A stretch of DNA of 14,982 nucleotides from a virus (lineage: Duplodnaviria > Heunggongvirae > Uroviricota > Caudoviricetes). Shown here piece by piece: positions 4,929 through 14,982 of this stretch. Below the pieces are notes generated by a model, which did no database searches, was not told where the DNA came from, and was given only the letters and a program-made list of their open reading frames with translations. Numbering within the stretch: position 1 is the stretch's first letter; every line of letters begins with the position of its first letter. The stretch is from IMG/VR virus record IMGVR_UViG_2547132281_000001; one strand, written 5' to 3'. Both the position numbers and the translations under genes were made by a program.

Positions 4929-4943
4929 GGTAATGACTCCAAC

Positions 4944-5447
4944 TTATTGATAGTGTTTTATGTTCAGATAATGCCCGATGACTTTGTCATGCAGCTCCAC
5001 CGATTTTGAGAACGACAGCGACTTCCGTCCCAGCCGTGCCAGGTGCTGCCTCAGATTCAGGTTATGCCGCTCAATTCGCTGCGTATATCGCTTGCTGATT
5101 ACGTGCAGCTTTCCCTTCAGGCGGGATTCATACAGCGGCCAGCCATCCGTCATCCATATCACCACGTCAAAGGGTGACAGCAGGCTCATAAGACGCCCCA
5201 GCGTCGCCATCGTGCGTTCACCGAATACGTGCGCAACAACCGTCTTCCGGAGCCTGTCATACGAGTAAAACAGCCAGCGCTGGCGCGATTTAGCCCCGAC
5301 ATAGCCCCACTGTTCGTCCATTTCCGCGCAGACGATGACGTCACTGCCCGGCTGTATGCGCGAGGTTACCGACTGCGGCCTGAGTTTTTTAAGTGACGTA
5401 AAATCGTGTTGAGGCCAACGCCCATAATGCGGGCAGTTGTCCGGCAT
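4944..5447 (-). CDS. insB: IS1 InsB reading frame (transposase C-terminal part, expressed as InsAB' by frameshift)
   Basis: 167-aa track [61 protein letters not shown]... is canonical IS1 InsB. Confidence 0.95.
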
Positions 5448-5641
5448 CCAACGCCATTCATGGCCATATCAATGATTTTCTGGTGCGTACCGGGTTGAGA
5501 AGCGGTGTAAGTGAACTGCAGTTGCCATGTTTTACGGCAGTGAGAGCAGAGATAGCGCTGATGTCCGGCGGTGCTTTTGCCGTTACGCACCCCCCCGTCA
5601 GTAGCTGAACAGGAGGGACAGCTGATAGAAACAGAAGCCAC
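5366..5641 (-). CDS. insA: IS1 InsA (91 aa)
   Basis: Track [94 protein letters not shown] is canonical InsA. Confidence 0.95.
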
Positions 5642-8267: not shown

Positions 8268-8642
8268 ATGCTCATAGATTTGGTTTTACCTTACCCACCG
8301 ACGGTGAACACTTACTGGCGACGCCGTGGCAGCACATATTTTATCTCGGAGGAGGGAAAGCGTTATCGCCGGGCTGTGGCGCTTATTGTTCGCCAGCAGC
8401 GGCTGAAATTAAGCCTGTCCGGAAGGCTGGCGATAAAGGTGATTGCAGAGCCACCGGATAAGCGTCGTCGCGACCTGGACAATATCCTGAAAGCACCGCT
8501 GGATGCGCTGACGCATGCGGGAGTGTTAATGGACGATGAGCAGTTTGATGAAATCAATATCGTTCGTGGTCAGCCAGTATCTGGTGGACGTCTGGGGGTG
8601 AAGATTTACCCCATAATGCATGAAGAGCAGGTCAAAAAATGA
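8268..8642 (+). CDS. rusA: RusA-family Holliday junction resolvase
   Basis: 124 aa. SD AAGAGG upstream. Motifs ...PPDKRRRDLDNILKAPLDALTHAGVLMDDEQ... align with recalled E. coli RusA (...[23 protein letters not shown]...). Confidence 0.8.
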   Translation: MLIDLVLPYPPTVNTYWRRRGSTYFISEEGKRYRRAVALIVRQQRLKLSLSGRLAIKVIAEPPDKRRRDLDNILKAPLDALTHAGVLMDDEQFDEINIVRGQPVSGGRLGVKIYPIMHEEQVKK

Positions 8643-9460
8643 AACTGGAAGATTTACCGAAATACTACTCCCCAAAATCCCCTTGCCTGACCGATGCATC
8701 GGCCTCAACGTCAAAAGATGCGCTGAGTATCACTGATGTGATGGCCGCGCAGGGCATGACACAGAATCGGGCTGAGATGGGGTTTTCTGCGTTCCTGGGG
8801 AAAATGGGCATCAGTATGAATGACAGGGCGCGGGCAACAGAATTACTGGCAGATTATGCACTCAGTCGGTGCGATCGTGTGGCGGCGTTGAGAAAACTTC
8901 CGGCAGAAATAAAACCGGTAGTGATGCGCATTATGGCTTCGTACGCTTTTGAGGATTATGCCCGCAGCGCAGCGAGTAAAAAGCAGTGCCCTTGTTGCTA
9001 TGGGGAAAAATTTATTGAAAGCGTAGTTTTTACAAACAAGGTCCAGTATCCGGATGGTAAGCCGCCGGTATGGGCAAAGTGTACGAAAGGTGTGTATCCG
9101 TCTTACTGGGAAGAATGGAAAAAAGTCAGGGAGGTGGTAAAAGTTGCCTGTCCGGAGTGTGGCGGAAAGGGTGAGGTTTCCACCGCCTGTAAGGATTGCC
9201 GTGGGCGTGGTGTCGCCATTCACCGTGAAGAGTCGGTAAAACGTGGTATGCCTGTTATCAGAGACTGCCAGCGTTGTGGTGGTCGTGGCTATGAAAGACT
9301 ACCATCAACGGAGGCATTTAATGCTATATGCGAGGTGACAAACCAGATAACACGCGCGTCATGGGAAAAAACAGTTAAGAAATTCTATGATGCGCTGGTG
9401 ACCCGGTTTGATATTGAAGAAGCATGGGCTGAGCGGCAGTTAAAAAAGGTAACTAGGTAA
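8639..9460 (+). CDS. Late-gene antiterminator Q (phage 21/QuuD-like, zinc-binding)
   Basis: 273 aa with several CxxC pairs (CPCCYG, CPECGGKG, CKDCRGRG, CQRCGGRG). Lies immediately upstream of a P_R'-like promoter and terminator and the lysis genes. ATGA overlap with rusA. Confidence 0.8.
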   Translation: MKLEDLPKYYSPKSPCLTDASASTSKDALSITDVMAAQGMTQNRAEMGFSAFLGKMGISMNDRARATELLADYALSRCDRVAALRKLPAEIKPVVMRIMASYAFEDYARSAASKKQCPCCYGEKFIESVVFTNKVQYPDGKPPVWAKCTKGVYPSYWEEWKKVREVVKVACPECGGKGEVSTACKDCRGRGVAIHREESVKRGMPVIRDCQRCGGRGYERLPSTEAFNAICEVTNQITRASWEKTVKKFYDALVTRFDIEEAWAERQLKKVTR

Positions 9461-9465
9461 CAAGG

Positions 9466-9493
9466 TTGATTTTTCCGGAATCTGTGGTAAATT
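9466..9493 (+). promoter_or_regulatory. Putative late promoter P_R' (with qut region)
   Basis: -35 TTGATT (9466-9471), 16-bp spacer, extended -10 TGgTAAATT (9485-9493). TAAATT is the -10 hexamer I recall for lambda P_R'. Confidence 0.45.
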
Positions 9494-9542
9494 CGTCATA
9501 ATGATGGGCTTTTTATGCCTGACGTTAGAAGAGTTTCTACAA

Positions 9543-9564
9543 CCCGCCGCCGAGCGGGTTTTTT
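9543..9564 (+). terminator. Rho-independent terminator (tR'-like) downstream of Q
   Basis: CCCGC-CGCCGA-GCGGG hairpin followed by TTTTTT. Confidence 0.6.
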
Positions 9565-9603
9565 ATTGCGGAATTAATTACGGACCGTTATTATTCTGCT
9601 CAC

Positions 9604-9679
9604 GGCCCTTTAGCTCAGTGGTGAGAGCGAGCGACTCATAATCGCCAGGTCGCTGGTTCAAATCCAGTACAGCGCGCCA
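9604..9679 (+). tRNA. tRNA-like sequence with CAU anticodon (Ile2/Met type) but non-pairing acceptor stem; possibly degenerate
   Basis: D arm (GCTC/GAGC), anticodon loop CTCATAA, T arm GCTGG-TTCAAAT-CCAGT and encoded 3' GCCA are all present. Acceptor 5' strand GGCCCTT pairs with 3' ACAGCGC at only 3 of 7 positions. Confidence 0.45.
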
Positions 9680-9816
9680 TATTCATTCTTCCAGATTCCT
9701 TCCGGCAGAGCCTTATACTGAAATATACTTGGCTCAGGATCTTGTTGAAAATATTATATGTTTGTCAAAAATAAAAGTTCTGTTAAGTATTGATTGAGTG
9801 TTTGTTATACCGTCTA

Positions 9817-10143
9817 ATGGTTTTTTCAGCATTAAATATTTATCATTCATATGGTGTGGGTAGAGTGAATATTGATGAGGCGTCGGGGTGTTTCATCCTT
9901 AGGCAGCGTATTGATATAGTCAATGCAGCACGAGCAAAGGCCTTCAGCCGTTTGACAGTTTTGTTTTGTACTCCTGATCGTCTTTCGGGAAGAGACGTTA
10001 TTATTCTGAATAGTGATGCTATACAGAGGGTTTGCGATGAGTTCATGGTTGCTAATTCAGAATTATTTGCTCTTGTTCAGGAGTACAACAGAATAGCCAG
10101 GACCTGTGGTATGGATGAACTTCGGATTACTCATCTGGGGTAG
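9817..10143 (+). CDS. Hypothetical ORF in AT-rich moron region (start uncertain)
   Basis: Track ORF 9790..10143 begins on TTG; first ATG is at 9817. No convincing SD and no family recognised. Confidence 0.3.
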   Translation: MVFSALNIYHSYGVGRVNIDEASGCFILRQRIDIVNAARAKAFSRLTVLFCTPDRLSGRDVIILNSDAIQRVCDEFMVANSELFALVQEYNRIARTCGMDELRITHLG

Positions 10144-10617
10144 ATACATATCTGGATTATCACCTGTTACGGTAAAAAGTTATTGCTTACTGTTTTTGTG
10201 AATGGCATTGCAGCAGCCGGATAATGTCAGTGCTGGCTGACGGTGTGCTGGTGGCGGGTGTGGTGGTTATTGCTTTCCCGTTGCTGAAAAAGAAAACGCC
10301 AGACTGTTAGCCGGGTATCAGTTAGCGGGAGAAATTTTTAAATACTTCACAATTCAGGCGGTTGACTGTTGTCTGGTTTGCGGGGAGTTTGTTAAAAGAA
10401 ACTGGCATGGTGAATCCCCCTGTGCGGAGGGGCAATCAGCGAGTAGGTATATGGGATAATCGCGGATTCAGGTGCTGGTACTGAATTCACCGGGAGGCAC
10501 CCGGCACCATGCACTTCAATAGATTCTCTCCACATTATGGATATTCTTTCAGAATATCCCACGCAGACTTTGTGTAAATGTTAACAAATGTGCGTTTTAT
10601 TTGATCTGATTCGCTGT

Positions 10618-10647
10618 TTGAGCGTCCAAAACAACGGTATATATAAT
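10618..10647 (+). promoter_or_regulatory. Sigma70-type promoter for the first TolA-like lipoprotein gene
   Basis: -35 TTGAGC (10618-10623), 18-bp spacer, -10 TATAAT (10642-10647). SD GAGGA then ATG at 10677. Confidence 0.55.
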
Positions 10648-10676
10648 CCTTTACTATATGACATATGTGAGGAAAA

Positions 10677-11105
10677 ATGGGTTTTCGTAGCGCATCAATT
10701 CTTACGTTGATTATTAGTGGGATTATTATCGGGTGCACTGATGCTGTATCGACAAATTATCATGACCGTACATCATATTACTCCGATAAAGCAATAGAGA
10801 CACAGTATGTGAGTTCATCTGAACGTACTTCTGATGTTAGTGAGGATATCCGTCTGTATGCCCATCAAATCAAGAGCGCCATCGAAAAACAGTTCGGGGA
10901 TGCGAGTAAGTATTCAGGAAAAGAGTGTACACTGAGAATGCATATGGCCCCGAATGGCCTTCTACTGGAGGTTAAAAGAGAAAGTGGAGACCTCGATTTA
11001 TGTCGTGAAGCGATGAATGCGATAAAGAATGCTGATATACCTGCCCCCCCTTCGCCGGAAGTATATAAAGTATTTCAAAATGGGGTGCTGGATTTTAAAC
11101 CCTGA
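10677..11105 (+). CDS. Lipoprotein with TolA C-terminal domain (TolA domain III)-like mature region
   Basis: Signal peptide with lipobox (..IIIGC). Mature part YAHQIKSAIEKQFGDASKYSGKECTLRMHMAPNGLLLEVKRESGDLDLCREAMNAIKNADIPAPPSPEVYKVFQNGVLDFKP aligns along its length with recalled TolA C-terminus YAGQIKSAIESKFYDASSYAGKTCTLRIKLAPDGMLLDIKPEGGDPALCQAALAAAKLAKIPKPPSQAVYEVFKNAPLDFKP. Confidence 0.8.
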   Translation: MGFRSASILTLIISGIIIGCTDAVSTNYHDRTSYYSDKAIETQYVSSSERTSDVSEDIRLYAHQIKSAIEKQFGDASKYSGKECTLRMHMAPNGLLLEVKRESGDLDLCREAMNAIKNADIPAPPSPEVYKVFQNGVLDFKP

Positions 11106-11147
11106 TATTTATTGTTTTGTAATAAACGGTTTCGGCTTAGGTTTGTT

Positions 11148-11176
11148 CTGACACAACTACGGCACTGAGCTAAATT
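11148..11176 (+). promoter_or_regulatory. Putative promoter for the second TolA-like lipoprotein gene
   Basis: -35 CTGACA (11148-11153), 17-bp spacer, -10 TAAATT (11171-11176). SD GAGGAG before GTG 11256. Confidence 0.4.
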
Positions 11177-11255
11177 TAGCGGATAGTCAACTCTGAGCCA
11201 GTGGCGGACGTAACAACTACTATTGCTGAGATTTTAATGGATTGAGGAGCAAGAA

Positions 11256-11651
11256 GTGGGATTAAAGAAAATCGTTATGTTGACTTTTTGGGTCGGTTTT
11301 GTTGCGGGATGCACACCTTTACACCCTTCAGATTGCCACAAAACTACTGCTACAGGTAGTTGCAGTTCAGGACGCTGGGATGATCAGGATGAATGGGGGG
11401 CGCAAGCGCGGGGAATCAGAGCTGCAATTAATGCCAAACTTGATGAGCCGCATAACTGGAAAGGGAAAAAATGCAGGTTGCATATGGAATTCTCTCAGGA
11501 TGGCACGGCGTTAAAAATATCTACCAGTAACGGTGATAAAGCCTATTGCGAAGCGATAAAGTCCGCAGCTCATAAAGCCAAATTTCCGGCCTTCAACAAT
11601 CCGGAAGTCTACAGAGATTTTCAGAAATCTGGCTTTGACATGCGAGGTTAG
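11256..11651 (+). CDS. Second, divergent TolA domain III-like lipoprotein (paralog), GTG start
   Basis: Lipobox VAGC. Mature region KGKKCRLHMEFSQDGTALKISTSNGDKAYCEAIKSAAHKAKFPAFNNPEVYRDFQKSGFDMRG follows the same pattern as the first copy (conserved Cys pair, NPEVY, FQ). Confidence 0.7.
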   Translation: MGLKKIVMLTFWVGFVAGCTPLHPSDCHKTTATGSCSSGRWDDQDEWGAQARGIRAAINAKLDEPHNWKGKKCRLHMEFSQDGTALKISTSNGDKAYCEAIKSAAHKAKFPAFNNPEVYRDFQKSGFDMRG

Positions 11652-11776
11652 CTCTTCAATTACTATATCTCATTCATAGCAAACTGACAGATTTGATGAT
11701 GTTCTATATACGAAACCTGTGATGTCAAGTCTGAGCTAATACAAATAAACATAATATCAGAGAAATACATTTTATT

Positions 11777-11799
11777 AGCTCGCTACGGCGAGCTTTTTA
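11777..11799 (+). terminator. Rho-independent terminator closing the moron cassette
   Basis: AGCTCGC-TACG-GCGAGCT hairpin followed by TTTTT. Confidence 0.6.
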
Positions 11800-11902
11800 T
11801 ATTGCATCGTCTCCAGCATATATATCAATTATGGCTCTGATTGATGTGTCTGGAAGCCTACACATAATAACTATGCCATCCGTTCCGTGCGGAGGTGAGG
11901 CT

Positions 11903-12118
11903 ATGAAATCCATGGACAAAATTTCAACAGGCATTGCCTACGGCACCTCCGCAGGCAGTGCTGGCTACTGGTTTTTACAGCTGCTCGATAAAGTCACGCC
12001 CTCACAGTGGGCAGCAATAGGTGTGCTGGGTAGCCTGGTATTTGGCCTGCTGACGTACCTGACAAATCTTTATTTCAAGATTAAAGAAGACAGGCGTAAG
12101 GCTGCGAGAGGAGAGTAA
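11903..12118 (+). CDS. Class II holin / pinholin (phage 21 S-like) with dual-start motif MKSM
   Basis: SD GGAGGTGAGG then ATG 11903. [71 protein letters not shown] is near-identical to recalled S21 and Qin EssQ. Confidence 0.85.
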
Positions 12119-12122
12119 TCCA

Positions 12123-12430
12123 ATGACTCAAGACTATGAACTGGTTGTGAAAGGAGTCCGTAATTTTGAGAATAAAGTTACGGTAACTGTAGCCTTACAG
12201 GACAAAGAACGCTTTGACGGTGAAATTTTTGGCCTGGATGTCGCCATGGACCGTGTTGAAGGAGCTGCGCTGGAGTTTTATGAGGCAGCAGCCAGAATGA
12301 GCGTCCGGCAAGTCTTCCTGGAAGTAGCAGAAAAATTGTCAGAAAAAGTTGAGTCTTATCTGCAGCATCAGTACTCCTTTAAGATTGAAAATCCTGCCAA
12401 TAAGCACGAGCGTCCTCATCATAAATATCT

Positions 12431-12434
<4 letters not shown>
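12123..12434 (+). CDS. ydfR: YdfR-like protein (103 aa) between holin and endolysin
   Basis: Same length and position as ydfR between essQ and rrrQ in Qin. Stop overlaps the endolysin start (ATGA). Confidence 0.65.
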
Positions 12435-13458
<1,024 letters not shown>

Positions 13459-14387: not shown

Positions 14388-14789
14388 GTGGGAACCAAAG
14401 TGTCAGATATGCAGAAAAATGTGACTCCCGGCAGGCGAAAAGGCTGCCCTAATTATCCTCCCGAATTTAAACAGCAGCTCGTTGCTGCCTCCTGGGAACC
14501 CGGGATATCCATCTCAAAACTTGCTCTTGAAAATGGCATTAACGCCAATCTGTTGTTCAAATGGCGACAACAATGGCGCGAGGGAAAGCTGCTATTACCT
14601 TCTTCAGAGAGCCCCCAGCTACTTCCTGTGACTCTCGATGCAGCTGCCGAACAGCCAGAATCGCTCGCAGAGGACCCGGAAACCCTCAGTATCAGCTGTG
14701 AGGTAACGTTCCGGCACGGGACGCTCCGCTTCAATGGCAATGTCAGCGAAAAGCTCCTGACTCTGCTGATACAGGAACTGAAGCGATGA
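14388..14789 (+). CDS. tnpA: IS66-family accessory protein TnpA (orf1)
   Basis: 133-aa track ORF; GTG at 14388 or ATG at 14409 (MQKNVTPGRRKGCPNYPPEFKQQLVAASWEPGISISKLALENGINANLLFKWRQQWREGKL...). Stop overlaps the tnpB start. Confidence 0.75.
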   Translation: MGTKVSDMQKNVTPGRRKGCPNYPPEFKQQLVAASWEPGISISKLALENGINANLLFKWRQQWREGKLLLPSSESPQLLPVTLDAAAEQPESLAEDPETLSISCEVTFRHGTLRFNGNVSEKLLTLLIQELKR

Positions 14790-14982
14790 TCCCGTTACCT
14801 TCCGGGACCAAAATTTGGCTGGTTGCCGGTATCACCGATATGAGAAATGGCTTCAACGGCCTGGCTGCGAAAGTACAAACGGCGCTGAAAGACGATCCCA
14901 TGTCCGGCCATGTTTTCATTTTCCGGGGCCGCAGCGGCAGTCAGGTTAAACTGCTGTGGTCCACCGGTGACGGACTGTGCCT
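14786..14982 (+). CDS. tnpB: IS66-family TnpB (orf2), 5' part only
   Basis: Hand translation MIPLPSGTKIWLVAGITDMRNGFNGLAAKVQTALKDDPMSGHVFIFRGRSGSQVKLLWSTGDGLC... matches the conserved IS66 TnpB N-terminus. Runs off the window end. Confidence 0.8.
   Translation, partial: MIPLPSGTKIWLVAGITDMRNGFNGLAAKVQTALKDDPMSGHVFIFRGRSGSQVKLLWSTGDGLC

Follow-up and report, generated by a model that had tools for sequence, protein, structure and literature searches.

The 14,982-nucleotide (nt) window analysed here is identical to positions 4493546–4508526 of the chromosome of Escherichia coli TW14425 (RefSeq NZ_CP127265.1) and belongs to a Qin-like cryptic prophage. In the slot between the late-gene antiterminator Q and the holin, this prophage carries a cassette of two plus-strand genes, gene 1 (10677–11105) and gene 2 (11256–11651), each encoding a small prolipoprotein that ends in a copy of domain III of TolA (TolAIII). 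We tentatively read the two proteins, at a little short of even confidence, as proteins tethered to the outer membrane that serve as decoys or competitors for colicins and filamentous phages dependent on TolA; their location, partners and tolerance phenotype are what we infer. A preceding sequence-only reading had placed two such genes at 10618–11651, in a Q-to-holin moron site, and both open reading frames (ORFs) are found there, its left border being the −35 hexamer of a promoter-like site.

Two lipoproteins with a TolA domain III

Both proteins match the TolA C-terminal family of Pfam (PF06519), gene 1 with 82.6 bits (E 2.4e-23) and gene 2 with 54.6 bits (E 1.3e-14), against a curated gathering cut-off of 25 bits, and in phmmer searches of the PDB the chains of E. 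coli TolA match gene 1 at about 1e-27 and gene 2 at about 5e-9. Residues 55–142 of gene 1 align without gaps to TolA 334–421, through the final residue, with 52 of 88 positions identical (59%). For gene 2, the ungapped alignment of residues 51–129 with TolA 341–419 has 27 of 79 identical positions (34%); between genes 1 and 2 themselves, identity is 29%. The mature region of gene 1 had been described as TolA-like along its whole length at about half identity: the level of identity stands, whereas the TolA-like part is only the C-terminal 88 of the 122 mature residues, the first 34 forming a non-homologous tether. Gene 2, correctly described as the more divergent of the two, retains like gene 1 the cysteine pair of TolA (C363/C388), which is invariant in 17 of 17 aligned sequences, and the PEVY..F motif.

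AlphaFold models built on family alignments, with a predicted local distance difference test score (pLDDT) of about 90 over the TolAIII domain in both, adopt the α/β fold of TolAIII, made up of a helix, two strands, two helices and a C-terminal strand. When compared by Foldseek, the gene 1 model superimposes onto 2x9a_B with a template-modelling (TM) score of 0.96 and a root-mean-square deviation (rmsd) of 0.6 Å, and the gene 2 model onto 3qdp with a TM score of 0.93 and an rmsd of 1.0 Å. Profile searches and structural superposition were the checks that the sequence-only reading had named for itself, and both agree with it. The stretch of 30–34 residues between the lipid-bearing cysteine and TolAIII has no confident AlphaFold structure in either protein.

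The 142-residue product of gene 1 is composed of a signal peptide (residues 1–19, MGFRSASILTLIISGIIIGC), the lipid-bearing Cys20, the tether (21–54) and TolAIII (55–142). That of gene 2, 131 residues long and read from a GTG start codon behind a conserved GAGGAG, has a signal peptide (1–18, MGLKKIVMLTFWVGFVAGC), the lipid-bearing Cys19, a cysteine-containing module (20–48) and TolAIII (about 49–131). Gene 1 has the lipobox IIGC and gene 2 VAGC, each preceded by a basic n-region and a hydrophobic core; the lipobox is kept in all relatives inspected, in agreement with the earlier prediction of lipobox signal peptides; the assignment is a pattern match only, to [LVI][ASTVI][GAS]C. After cleavage the proteins begin C-T-D (gene 1) and C-T-P (gene 2), the gene 2 relatives C-A/S/G-P, with no Asp at the +2 position. 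Because Thr occupies +2 in both, the +2 rule of Lol avoidance predicts that both proteins should be sorted to the outer membrane.

The N-terminal module of gene 2 (window 11313–11399), C-x-PLHPS-x-CHKTTATGSCSSGRWDDQDEWG, contains two extra cysteines and is nearly invariant from E. coli phage to Serratia, and its pLDDT is below 50 despite this conservation. Its faint similarity to the TolB box of colicins (DG[ST]GWSSE...W; PMC2821528) was considered and rejected as evidence of mimicry, the Trp alone being common to both when aligned.

The ratio of nonsynonymous to synonymous substitution rates (dN/dS) is 0.08–0.13 for gene 2 against its plasmid and chromosomal relatives, and 0.30–0.40 for gene 1 against a 66% identical variant (0.23–0.37 for the domain alone). 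Since these ratios are low, the lipobox is conserved and the signal peptides have no counterpart in TolA, both genes are, as judged by sequence comparison, real and under purifying selection.

With TolA domain III (about residues 325–421; PDB 1TOL, 2X9A, 3QDP/3QDR and 1S62) the two proteins have in common the fold, the PF06519 family and the cysteine pair. TolA itself possesses an N-terminal transmembrane domain I, which couples it to TolQ–TolR, and a long helical domain II that spans the periplasm, whereas the products of genes 1 and 2 carry instead a cleavable lipobox signal peptide and a tether of only 30–34 residues, and are anchored by an N-terminal lipid, probably to the outer membrane. 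Both being devoid of domains I and II, neither can couple to TolQR. Moreover, tolA belongs to the ybgC-tolQRA-tolB-pal-cpoB operon and genes 1 and 2 lie between phage Q and holin, and within the aligned domain 41% (gene 1) and 66% (gene 2) of the positions differ from TolA.

Strand β3 of TolAIII (A415–K420) binds the N-terminus of TolB, g3p-N1 and colicin N by β-strand addition, with backbone hydrogen bonds at D418 and K420 (PMC4339652, PMC7391070), and colicin A binds TolA on the opposite strand, L375–P380 (PMC3365938). The β3 region, APLDFKP in TolA (415–421), reads GVLDFKP in gene 1 and SGFDMRG, proline-free, in gene 2. In gene 1, 12 of the 20 residues of the helix contacted by g3p are identical to TolA, and the colicin A strand is conservatively retained (LLLEVKRE). 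Gene 1, which keeps the β3 strand and the first helix, appears from these alignments to be the better TolA mimic of the two.

Both proteins are members of phrog_5772 (E 1.6e-62 and 6.7e-65), labelled as of unknown function in PHROGs. Against the TolA equivalog model NF007065 they score 107.8 and 53.7 bits, both below the cut-off of 213, and against TIGR02794 gene 1 passes (75.6 against a cut-off of 59.45) and gene 2 remains below (47.2); the matches span only model positions 265–362 and 293–386. RefSeq thus labels gene 1 'tolA' because its C-terminal part alone passes the TIGR02794 cut-off: PGAP (RefSeq NZ_CP127265.1) gives it as an incomplete tolA pseudogene at window 10843–11103, and as a pseudogene it is missing from RefSeq proteomes. 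The PGAP feature of gene 2 covers window 11275–11649. Its ATG start at 11277 removes the n-region, whereas the GTG at 11256, where the aligned plasmid copies have an ATG behind a conserved GGATTGAGGAGCAA, yields a normal basic n-region.

Occurrence on phages, plasmids and chromosomes

Of 5,426 complete E. coli genomes, 773 contain the cassette at 99% identity or more, and 1,340 (about a quarter) have some match either to its region or to the gene 2 copy of the plasmids. In each of 34 prophage loci of IMG/VR the two genes form a tandem pair, with an S21-type holin about 256 nt downstream. Between these conserved modules the cassette is joined to differing alleles of Q, holin and lysozyme, which fits a moron moving by recombination.

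A relative of gene 1, 65–68% identical and starting MYCR, occurs alone in other prophages, of the type found in enterohaemorrhagic E. coli (EHEC), in the order Q, DNA methylase, gene 1-like, (AraC-type regulator), nanS-p esterase, DUF826, holin. In the 123 complete genomes that carry this variant, its annotation reads 'tolA'. This position, flanked by the DNA methylase that follows Q on one side and by the nanS-p esterase and holin on the other, we take to be the stxAB slot of Shiga toxin (Stx) phage maps, which agrees with the stx slot proposed from the sequence alone.

Copies of gene 2, about 88% identical, are carried by 607 plasmids. On IncI1/B/O/K/Z plasmids the gene directly follows the nikB relaxase gene and adjoins the transfer genes; on pO157 of EDL933 a homologue with 87% nucleotide identity (76330–76761; locus L011, 6995–7426) lies between the hok/psiAB leading region and toxB, and no mention of it was found in the pO157 papers. 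Relatives 79–89% identical are chromosomal genes in Enterobacter (btuE-gene-ridA), Citrobacter and other genera, and gene 2 relatives also lie on Serratia chromosomes. The NCBI/PGAP name given to relatives of gene 2 is 'cell envelope integrity TolA C-terminal domain-containing protein'. The sequence-only reading had spoken of a prophage system. The cassette is indeed a prophage one, but the term is too narrow, as gene 2 has its own conserved module and belongs to a family that is also found on plasmids and is chromosomal in other genera.

Gene 1, used as the query of an exhaustive HMMER search, gave 333 representative clusters, and the nearest neighbour of gene 1 outside its own family is E. 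coli TolA. Among the top 146 clusters, 69 are 100–175 residues long; a lipobox is present in at least 44 of these, and several of the remainder have an ordinary Sec signal peptide instead. All the short stand-alone proteins end in a C-terminal TolAIII, most with the motif (L/M)DF(K/R)(P/L), and one such relative sits on a Rep3 plasmid.

The motif [VI]DDLF, found at the junction of TolA domains II and III, is kept in 11 of the 44 TolAIII lipoprotein clusters (P0173, P0183, P0188, P0210, P0212, P0243, P0261, P0268, P0270, P0291 and P0296) and is absent from genes 1 and 2. This uneven retention suggests that several independent truncations of tolA gave rise to such clusters.

Three further settings of stand-alone TolAIII genes were observed. 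In Serratia (loci L097, L102 and L104) a TolAIII lipoprotein gene occupies a fixed chromosomal site, gene-ynfU-lysE, the left flank of which holds fimbrial usher genes in one case, type I-F CRISPR Csy genes or a phage integrase/capsid remnant in others; this variation suggests an integration hotspot. In Salmonella enterica subsp. diarizonae (L095, 7001–7345) a 114-residue stand-alone TolAIII, Sec-exported and non-lipidated, is encoded 1.1 kb from the secretin and Zot genes of a filamentous prophage (inovirus genes at 8484–11122), with GC-rich repeats between them. Finally, a three-gene operon (L091, 6112–7357; also L092 and L093) in an Enterobacter island, which has mer, Ter and retron genes as well, encodes a 152-residue lipoprotein with a TonB C-terminal domain (TonB_C) and the TolA-type junction motif VDDLFGDL, a 144-residue Sec-exported protein that belongs to no family, and a 118-residue TolAIII lipoprotein. 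This TonB_C–TolAIII operon has no megablast match in PLSDB.

The slot between Q and the holin

The host element carries dicB/dicA/dicC, hok, rem, RusA, Q, essD-ydfR-rrrQ-rzpQ and cspI, and is interrupted by IS1 and IS66 insertions at 4942–5639 (minus strand) and 14420–14982 (plus strand). These insertions, together with dicB/dicA/dicC and hok, show it to be a degraded Qin-like cryptic prophage, so that the phage in which the TolAIII cassette is retained is probably incapable of growth.

All the features of the slot lie on the plus strand. Its upstream boundary is Q (8639–9460; Pfam Antiterm PF03589, E 6e-55; 'antitermination protein' in PGAP), just 3′ of which a terminator-like hairpin with a T-run (9541–9568; hairpin 9541–9560 with a 7-bp stem including five GC pairs, tail TTTTATTGCG) is, by its position, presumably the tR′ of the late operon. 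Between this hairpin and the cassette lies a tRNA-Met (CAT) gene (9605–9679; ARAGORN, and tRNA-Met in PGAP). It directly follows the tR′-like terminator, which is where Stx phages place tRNA genes upstream of stx. Also inside the slot is a 117-codon ORF of phrog_2873 (9790–10143; E 3.8e-70; function unknown in PHROGs), which has no RefSeq annotation. It travels with the TolAIII cassette in copies 98–100% identical, and a 59% identical copy is found downstream of the gene 1-like variant in EHEC-type prophages.

A second terminator-like hairpin with a T-run (11777–11802; hairpin 11777–11794, again a 7-bp stem with five GC pairs, tail TTTTATATTG) ends the cassette about 100 nt before the downstream boundary, the S21-type holin gene essD (11904–12118; Pfam Phage_holin_2_1, E 1.6e-35; PGAP name). 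The latter is followed by DUF1327, lysozyme (12431–12964; Phage_lysozyme, E 6e-24) and an Rz-like gene, with PGAP names. The two hairpins are the bracketing terminators that the sequence-only reading had seen. GC content is 0.37–0.48 across the cassette interval against about 0.50 in both flanks, and the same slot in the Qin prophage of K-12 is occupied by cspB/cspF. With its own terminator and deviant base composition, the cassette is supported as a terminator-bounded, low-GC moron between Q and the holin.

Each gene had also been credited with its own σ70-like promoter. The candidate for gene 1 (10618–10647; TTGAGC-18-TATAAT) matches the consensus at 10 of 12 positions, ends 30 nt before the gene and is the top-scoring site in 9300–12200, though unproven; a weaker promoter-like site precedes gene 2 (11148–11176; CTGACA-17-TAAATT, 9 of 12), and its −10 part falls in a segment absent from the IncI and pO157 copies. 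The consensus matches are thus there, but such sites are neither enriched over shuffled sequence (11 found against 6.9 ± 2.1) nor conserved in relatives, which leaves autonomous expression of the cassette plausible but unproven. Since the stretch separating genes 1 and 2 has no predicted terminator, the two may be co-transcribed.

Decoy model and alternatives

According to the decoy model, processing by signal peptidase II and Lol sorting would leave each lipoprotein hanging on its tether of about 30 residues from the inner face of the outer membrane, displaying a free TolAIII copy without the membrane anchor or domain II of TolA. This copy could meet the TolA-binding epitopes of group A colicins and related bacteriocins, and g3p-N1 of filamentous phages, before real TolA, which must reach out from the inner membrane, or in competition with it, and binding would be a dead end because the copy is uncoupled from TolQR and the proton motive force. 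Lysogens would thereby gain tolerance to killers and invaders that depend on TolA, as would cells with pO157, an IncI plasmid or a chromosomal copy. Gene 2, being divergent and endowed with an extra conserved module, probably has a different or additional partner.

The decoy model fits the range of carriers that would profit from such tolerance, namely IncI conjugative plasmids, pO157, the Rep3 plasmid and islands adjoining CRISPR-Cas or defence genes. The I pilus of IncI plasmids is the receptor of the TolA-dependent filamentous phage If1, and the solved complex is 2x9a. The model also fits the operon in which one relative accompanies a lipoprotein with the C-terminal domain of TonB, the other import hub hijacked by colicins and phages, and the retention of the cassette in a dead, IS-riddled prophage. 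The β3 strand, g3p-contacted helix and colicin A strand kept in gene 1, and the low dN/dS of both genes, count in its favour as well. The low GC content, the terminator of its own, the stx slot and the varied Q, holin and lysozyme partners likewise fit a lysogenic-conversion moron.

Several observations weigh on the other side. The pair is found in only one of 50,697 sequenced phage isolates, mEp460_ev081, and no defence-system family of PADLOC-DB 2.0 matched at E ≤ 0.01. Gene 2, with a domain identity to TolAIII of only 34%, is a poor side-chain mimic of TolA, bears charge-swapping substitutions where colicin A binds (K368E, D377K) and differs in β3; in Enterobacter, Citrobacter and Serratia its family persists as a stable chromosomal gene under strong conservation, a pattern that a conserved endogenous partner fits better than an arms-race decoy. 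The predicted promoter hexamers are not common to the upstream regions of gene 1 and its 66% variant, and those of gene 2 are not common to the upstream DNA of its plasmid and chromosomal relatives, in which only the Shine–Dalgarno and start region is conserved. Lastly, free TolAIII would also titrate TolB and produce a tol phenotype, which is costly in bile, and the level of expression in lysogens therefore matters.

Among known systems, genes 1 and 2 would work most like periplasmic TolAIII produced in the laboratory. Exported TolAIII is reported by Levengood-Freyermuth et al. in 1993 to give tolerance to group A colicins and f1. The laboratory fusions of a signal sequence to TolAIII (Levengood-Freyermuth et al. 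1993; Wan & Baneyx 1998, pTA3Y) provide free exported TolAIII uncoupled from the motor; they are soluble, overproduced and identical in sequence to TolA, whereas the natural proteins are lipid-tethered, diverged and selected in nature. An engineered fusion of this kind causes E. coli to leak periplasmic proteins (PMC6195910). Cor (phi80/N15), Llp (T5) and TraT/Bor are also small lipoproteins of mobile elements, often morons near lysis genes, that shield their carrier from phages and colicins exploiting an envelope protein of the host, and genes 1 and 2 would resemble them in biological role. However, these lipoproteins bind and cover an outer-membrane receptor (FhuA) or operate at the cell surface and are not copies of host proteins, whereas the target proposed here would be the TolA-binding epitope of the invader, or TolB, in the periplasm. 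In the tolerance mediated by g3p of Ff phages, g3p occupies TolA in the infected cell, and the same interface between TolAIII and its ligands is blocked to exclude TolA-dependent entry. The strategy is the inverse one, since g3p blocks the hub of the host and genes 1 and 2 would add surplus copies of it.

The leakage caused by the exported fusion (PMC6195910) would also suit a modulator of Tol–Pal or of the outer membrane, which we consider rather unlikely. Tethered TolAIII would then bind the N-terminus of TolB or another endogenous partner and alter Pal mobilisation; Q-driven read-through in the lytic cycle would loosen the outer membrane and aid lysis or vesicle release, and a low level of the proteins may tune the envelope. 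The cassette lies in the late operon, with the holin about 250 nt downstream in every phage copy, but a strong terminator stands between gene 2 and the holin gene, the cassette has the look of an autonomous unit, holin, lysozyme and Rz-like genes already make up a complete lysis set in the window, and the plasmid and chromosomal copies have no lysis genes nearby. The TolB-binding strand β3 is retained (PMC7391070), and the gene 2 relatives, conserved chromosomal genes with a dN/dS of about 0.1 and an extra module, look as expected for an endogenous partner. The interaction of TolA with TolB is weak, however, with a dissociation constant of 40–200 µM (PMC7391070), so that a low-level competitor would do little, and the tol phenotype is one of detergent sensitivity, a handicap in the gut.

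Another outer-membrane role of the TolAIII or TonB-like domain, which we regard as distinctly unlikely, would make these proteins receptors or adaptors for a new partner, conjugation entry-exclusion factors or anchors for the gene 2 module. It would account for the place of the IncI-complex copies directly after nikB, adjoining the transfer genes, for the near-invariance across genera of a module with no confident structure, and for the family-less 144-residue exported protein encoded between the TonB_C and TolAIII lipoproteins. Nothing indicates a specific alternative partner, though, pO157 retains the gene while being non-mobilisable, and searches of both proteins in Pfam, PHROGs and NCBIfam revealed no similarity to TraT, TrbK, Cor or Llp, and PADLOC likewise gave no hit to an exclusion lipoprotein of the Cor, Llp or TraT kind.

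Decay of phage-captured tolA fragments, implied by the RefSeq label 'pseudogene, missing N-terminus', by the flagging of gene 1 as incomplete tolA in PGAP and by the cryptic state of a prophage with IS1 and IS66, is very improbable, being contradicted by selection (dN/dS well below 1) and architecture: the ORFs are intact, with Shine–Dalgarno sites and lipobox signal peptides foreign to TolA, the near-identical cassette of the 773 genomes is combined with different phage modules, and dozens of independent families have the same architecture.

To return to the decoy model, it may extend beyond the window. It is possible, though doubtful, that stand-alone exported TolAIII and TonB C-terminal domains are a widespread and hitherto overlooked class of 'import-hub decoys', mostly lipid-tethered and carried by prophages (EHEC phages with a copy in the stx slot among them), by plasmids such as pO157 and those of the IncI complex, by islands and by some chromosomes. 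Bacteriocins that depend on Tol or Ton, and filamentous and other hub-dependent phages, would be intercepted in the outer periplasm, which would make the carrier broadly tolerant to them, and the pair in the window would be a two-specificity version. Searches of the full-text literature yielded no description of phage- or plasmid-borne TolAIII lipoproteins, and the earlier remark that no such prophage system is known accords with this and with what was found in PHROGs and PADLOC. An apparent TolA link of a ciprofloxacin-induced gene of CP-933O (PMC11125564) is not evidence, the supplement showing a tail fibre protein.

The family is far wider than a prophage curiosity. Sensitivity to colicins and other bacteriocins shapes the persistence of E. 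coli strains in the gut, and there is interest in using filamentous and pilus-specific phages to combat plasmid-borne resistance. Among the carriers are O157:H7, through pO157, and many IncI resistance plasmids. If the proposed tolerance is true, these proteins would be a common and so far invisible tolerance determinant in E. coli, and a clean natural case in which a mobile element protects its host through a copied hub domain of that host rather than through a masked receptor. If instead they tune Tol–Pal, they would be natural tools for studying TolB–Pal mobilisation and vesicle formation.

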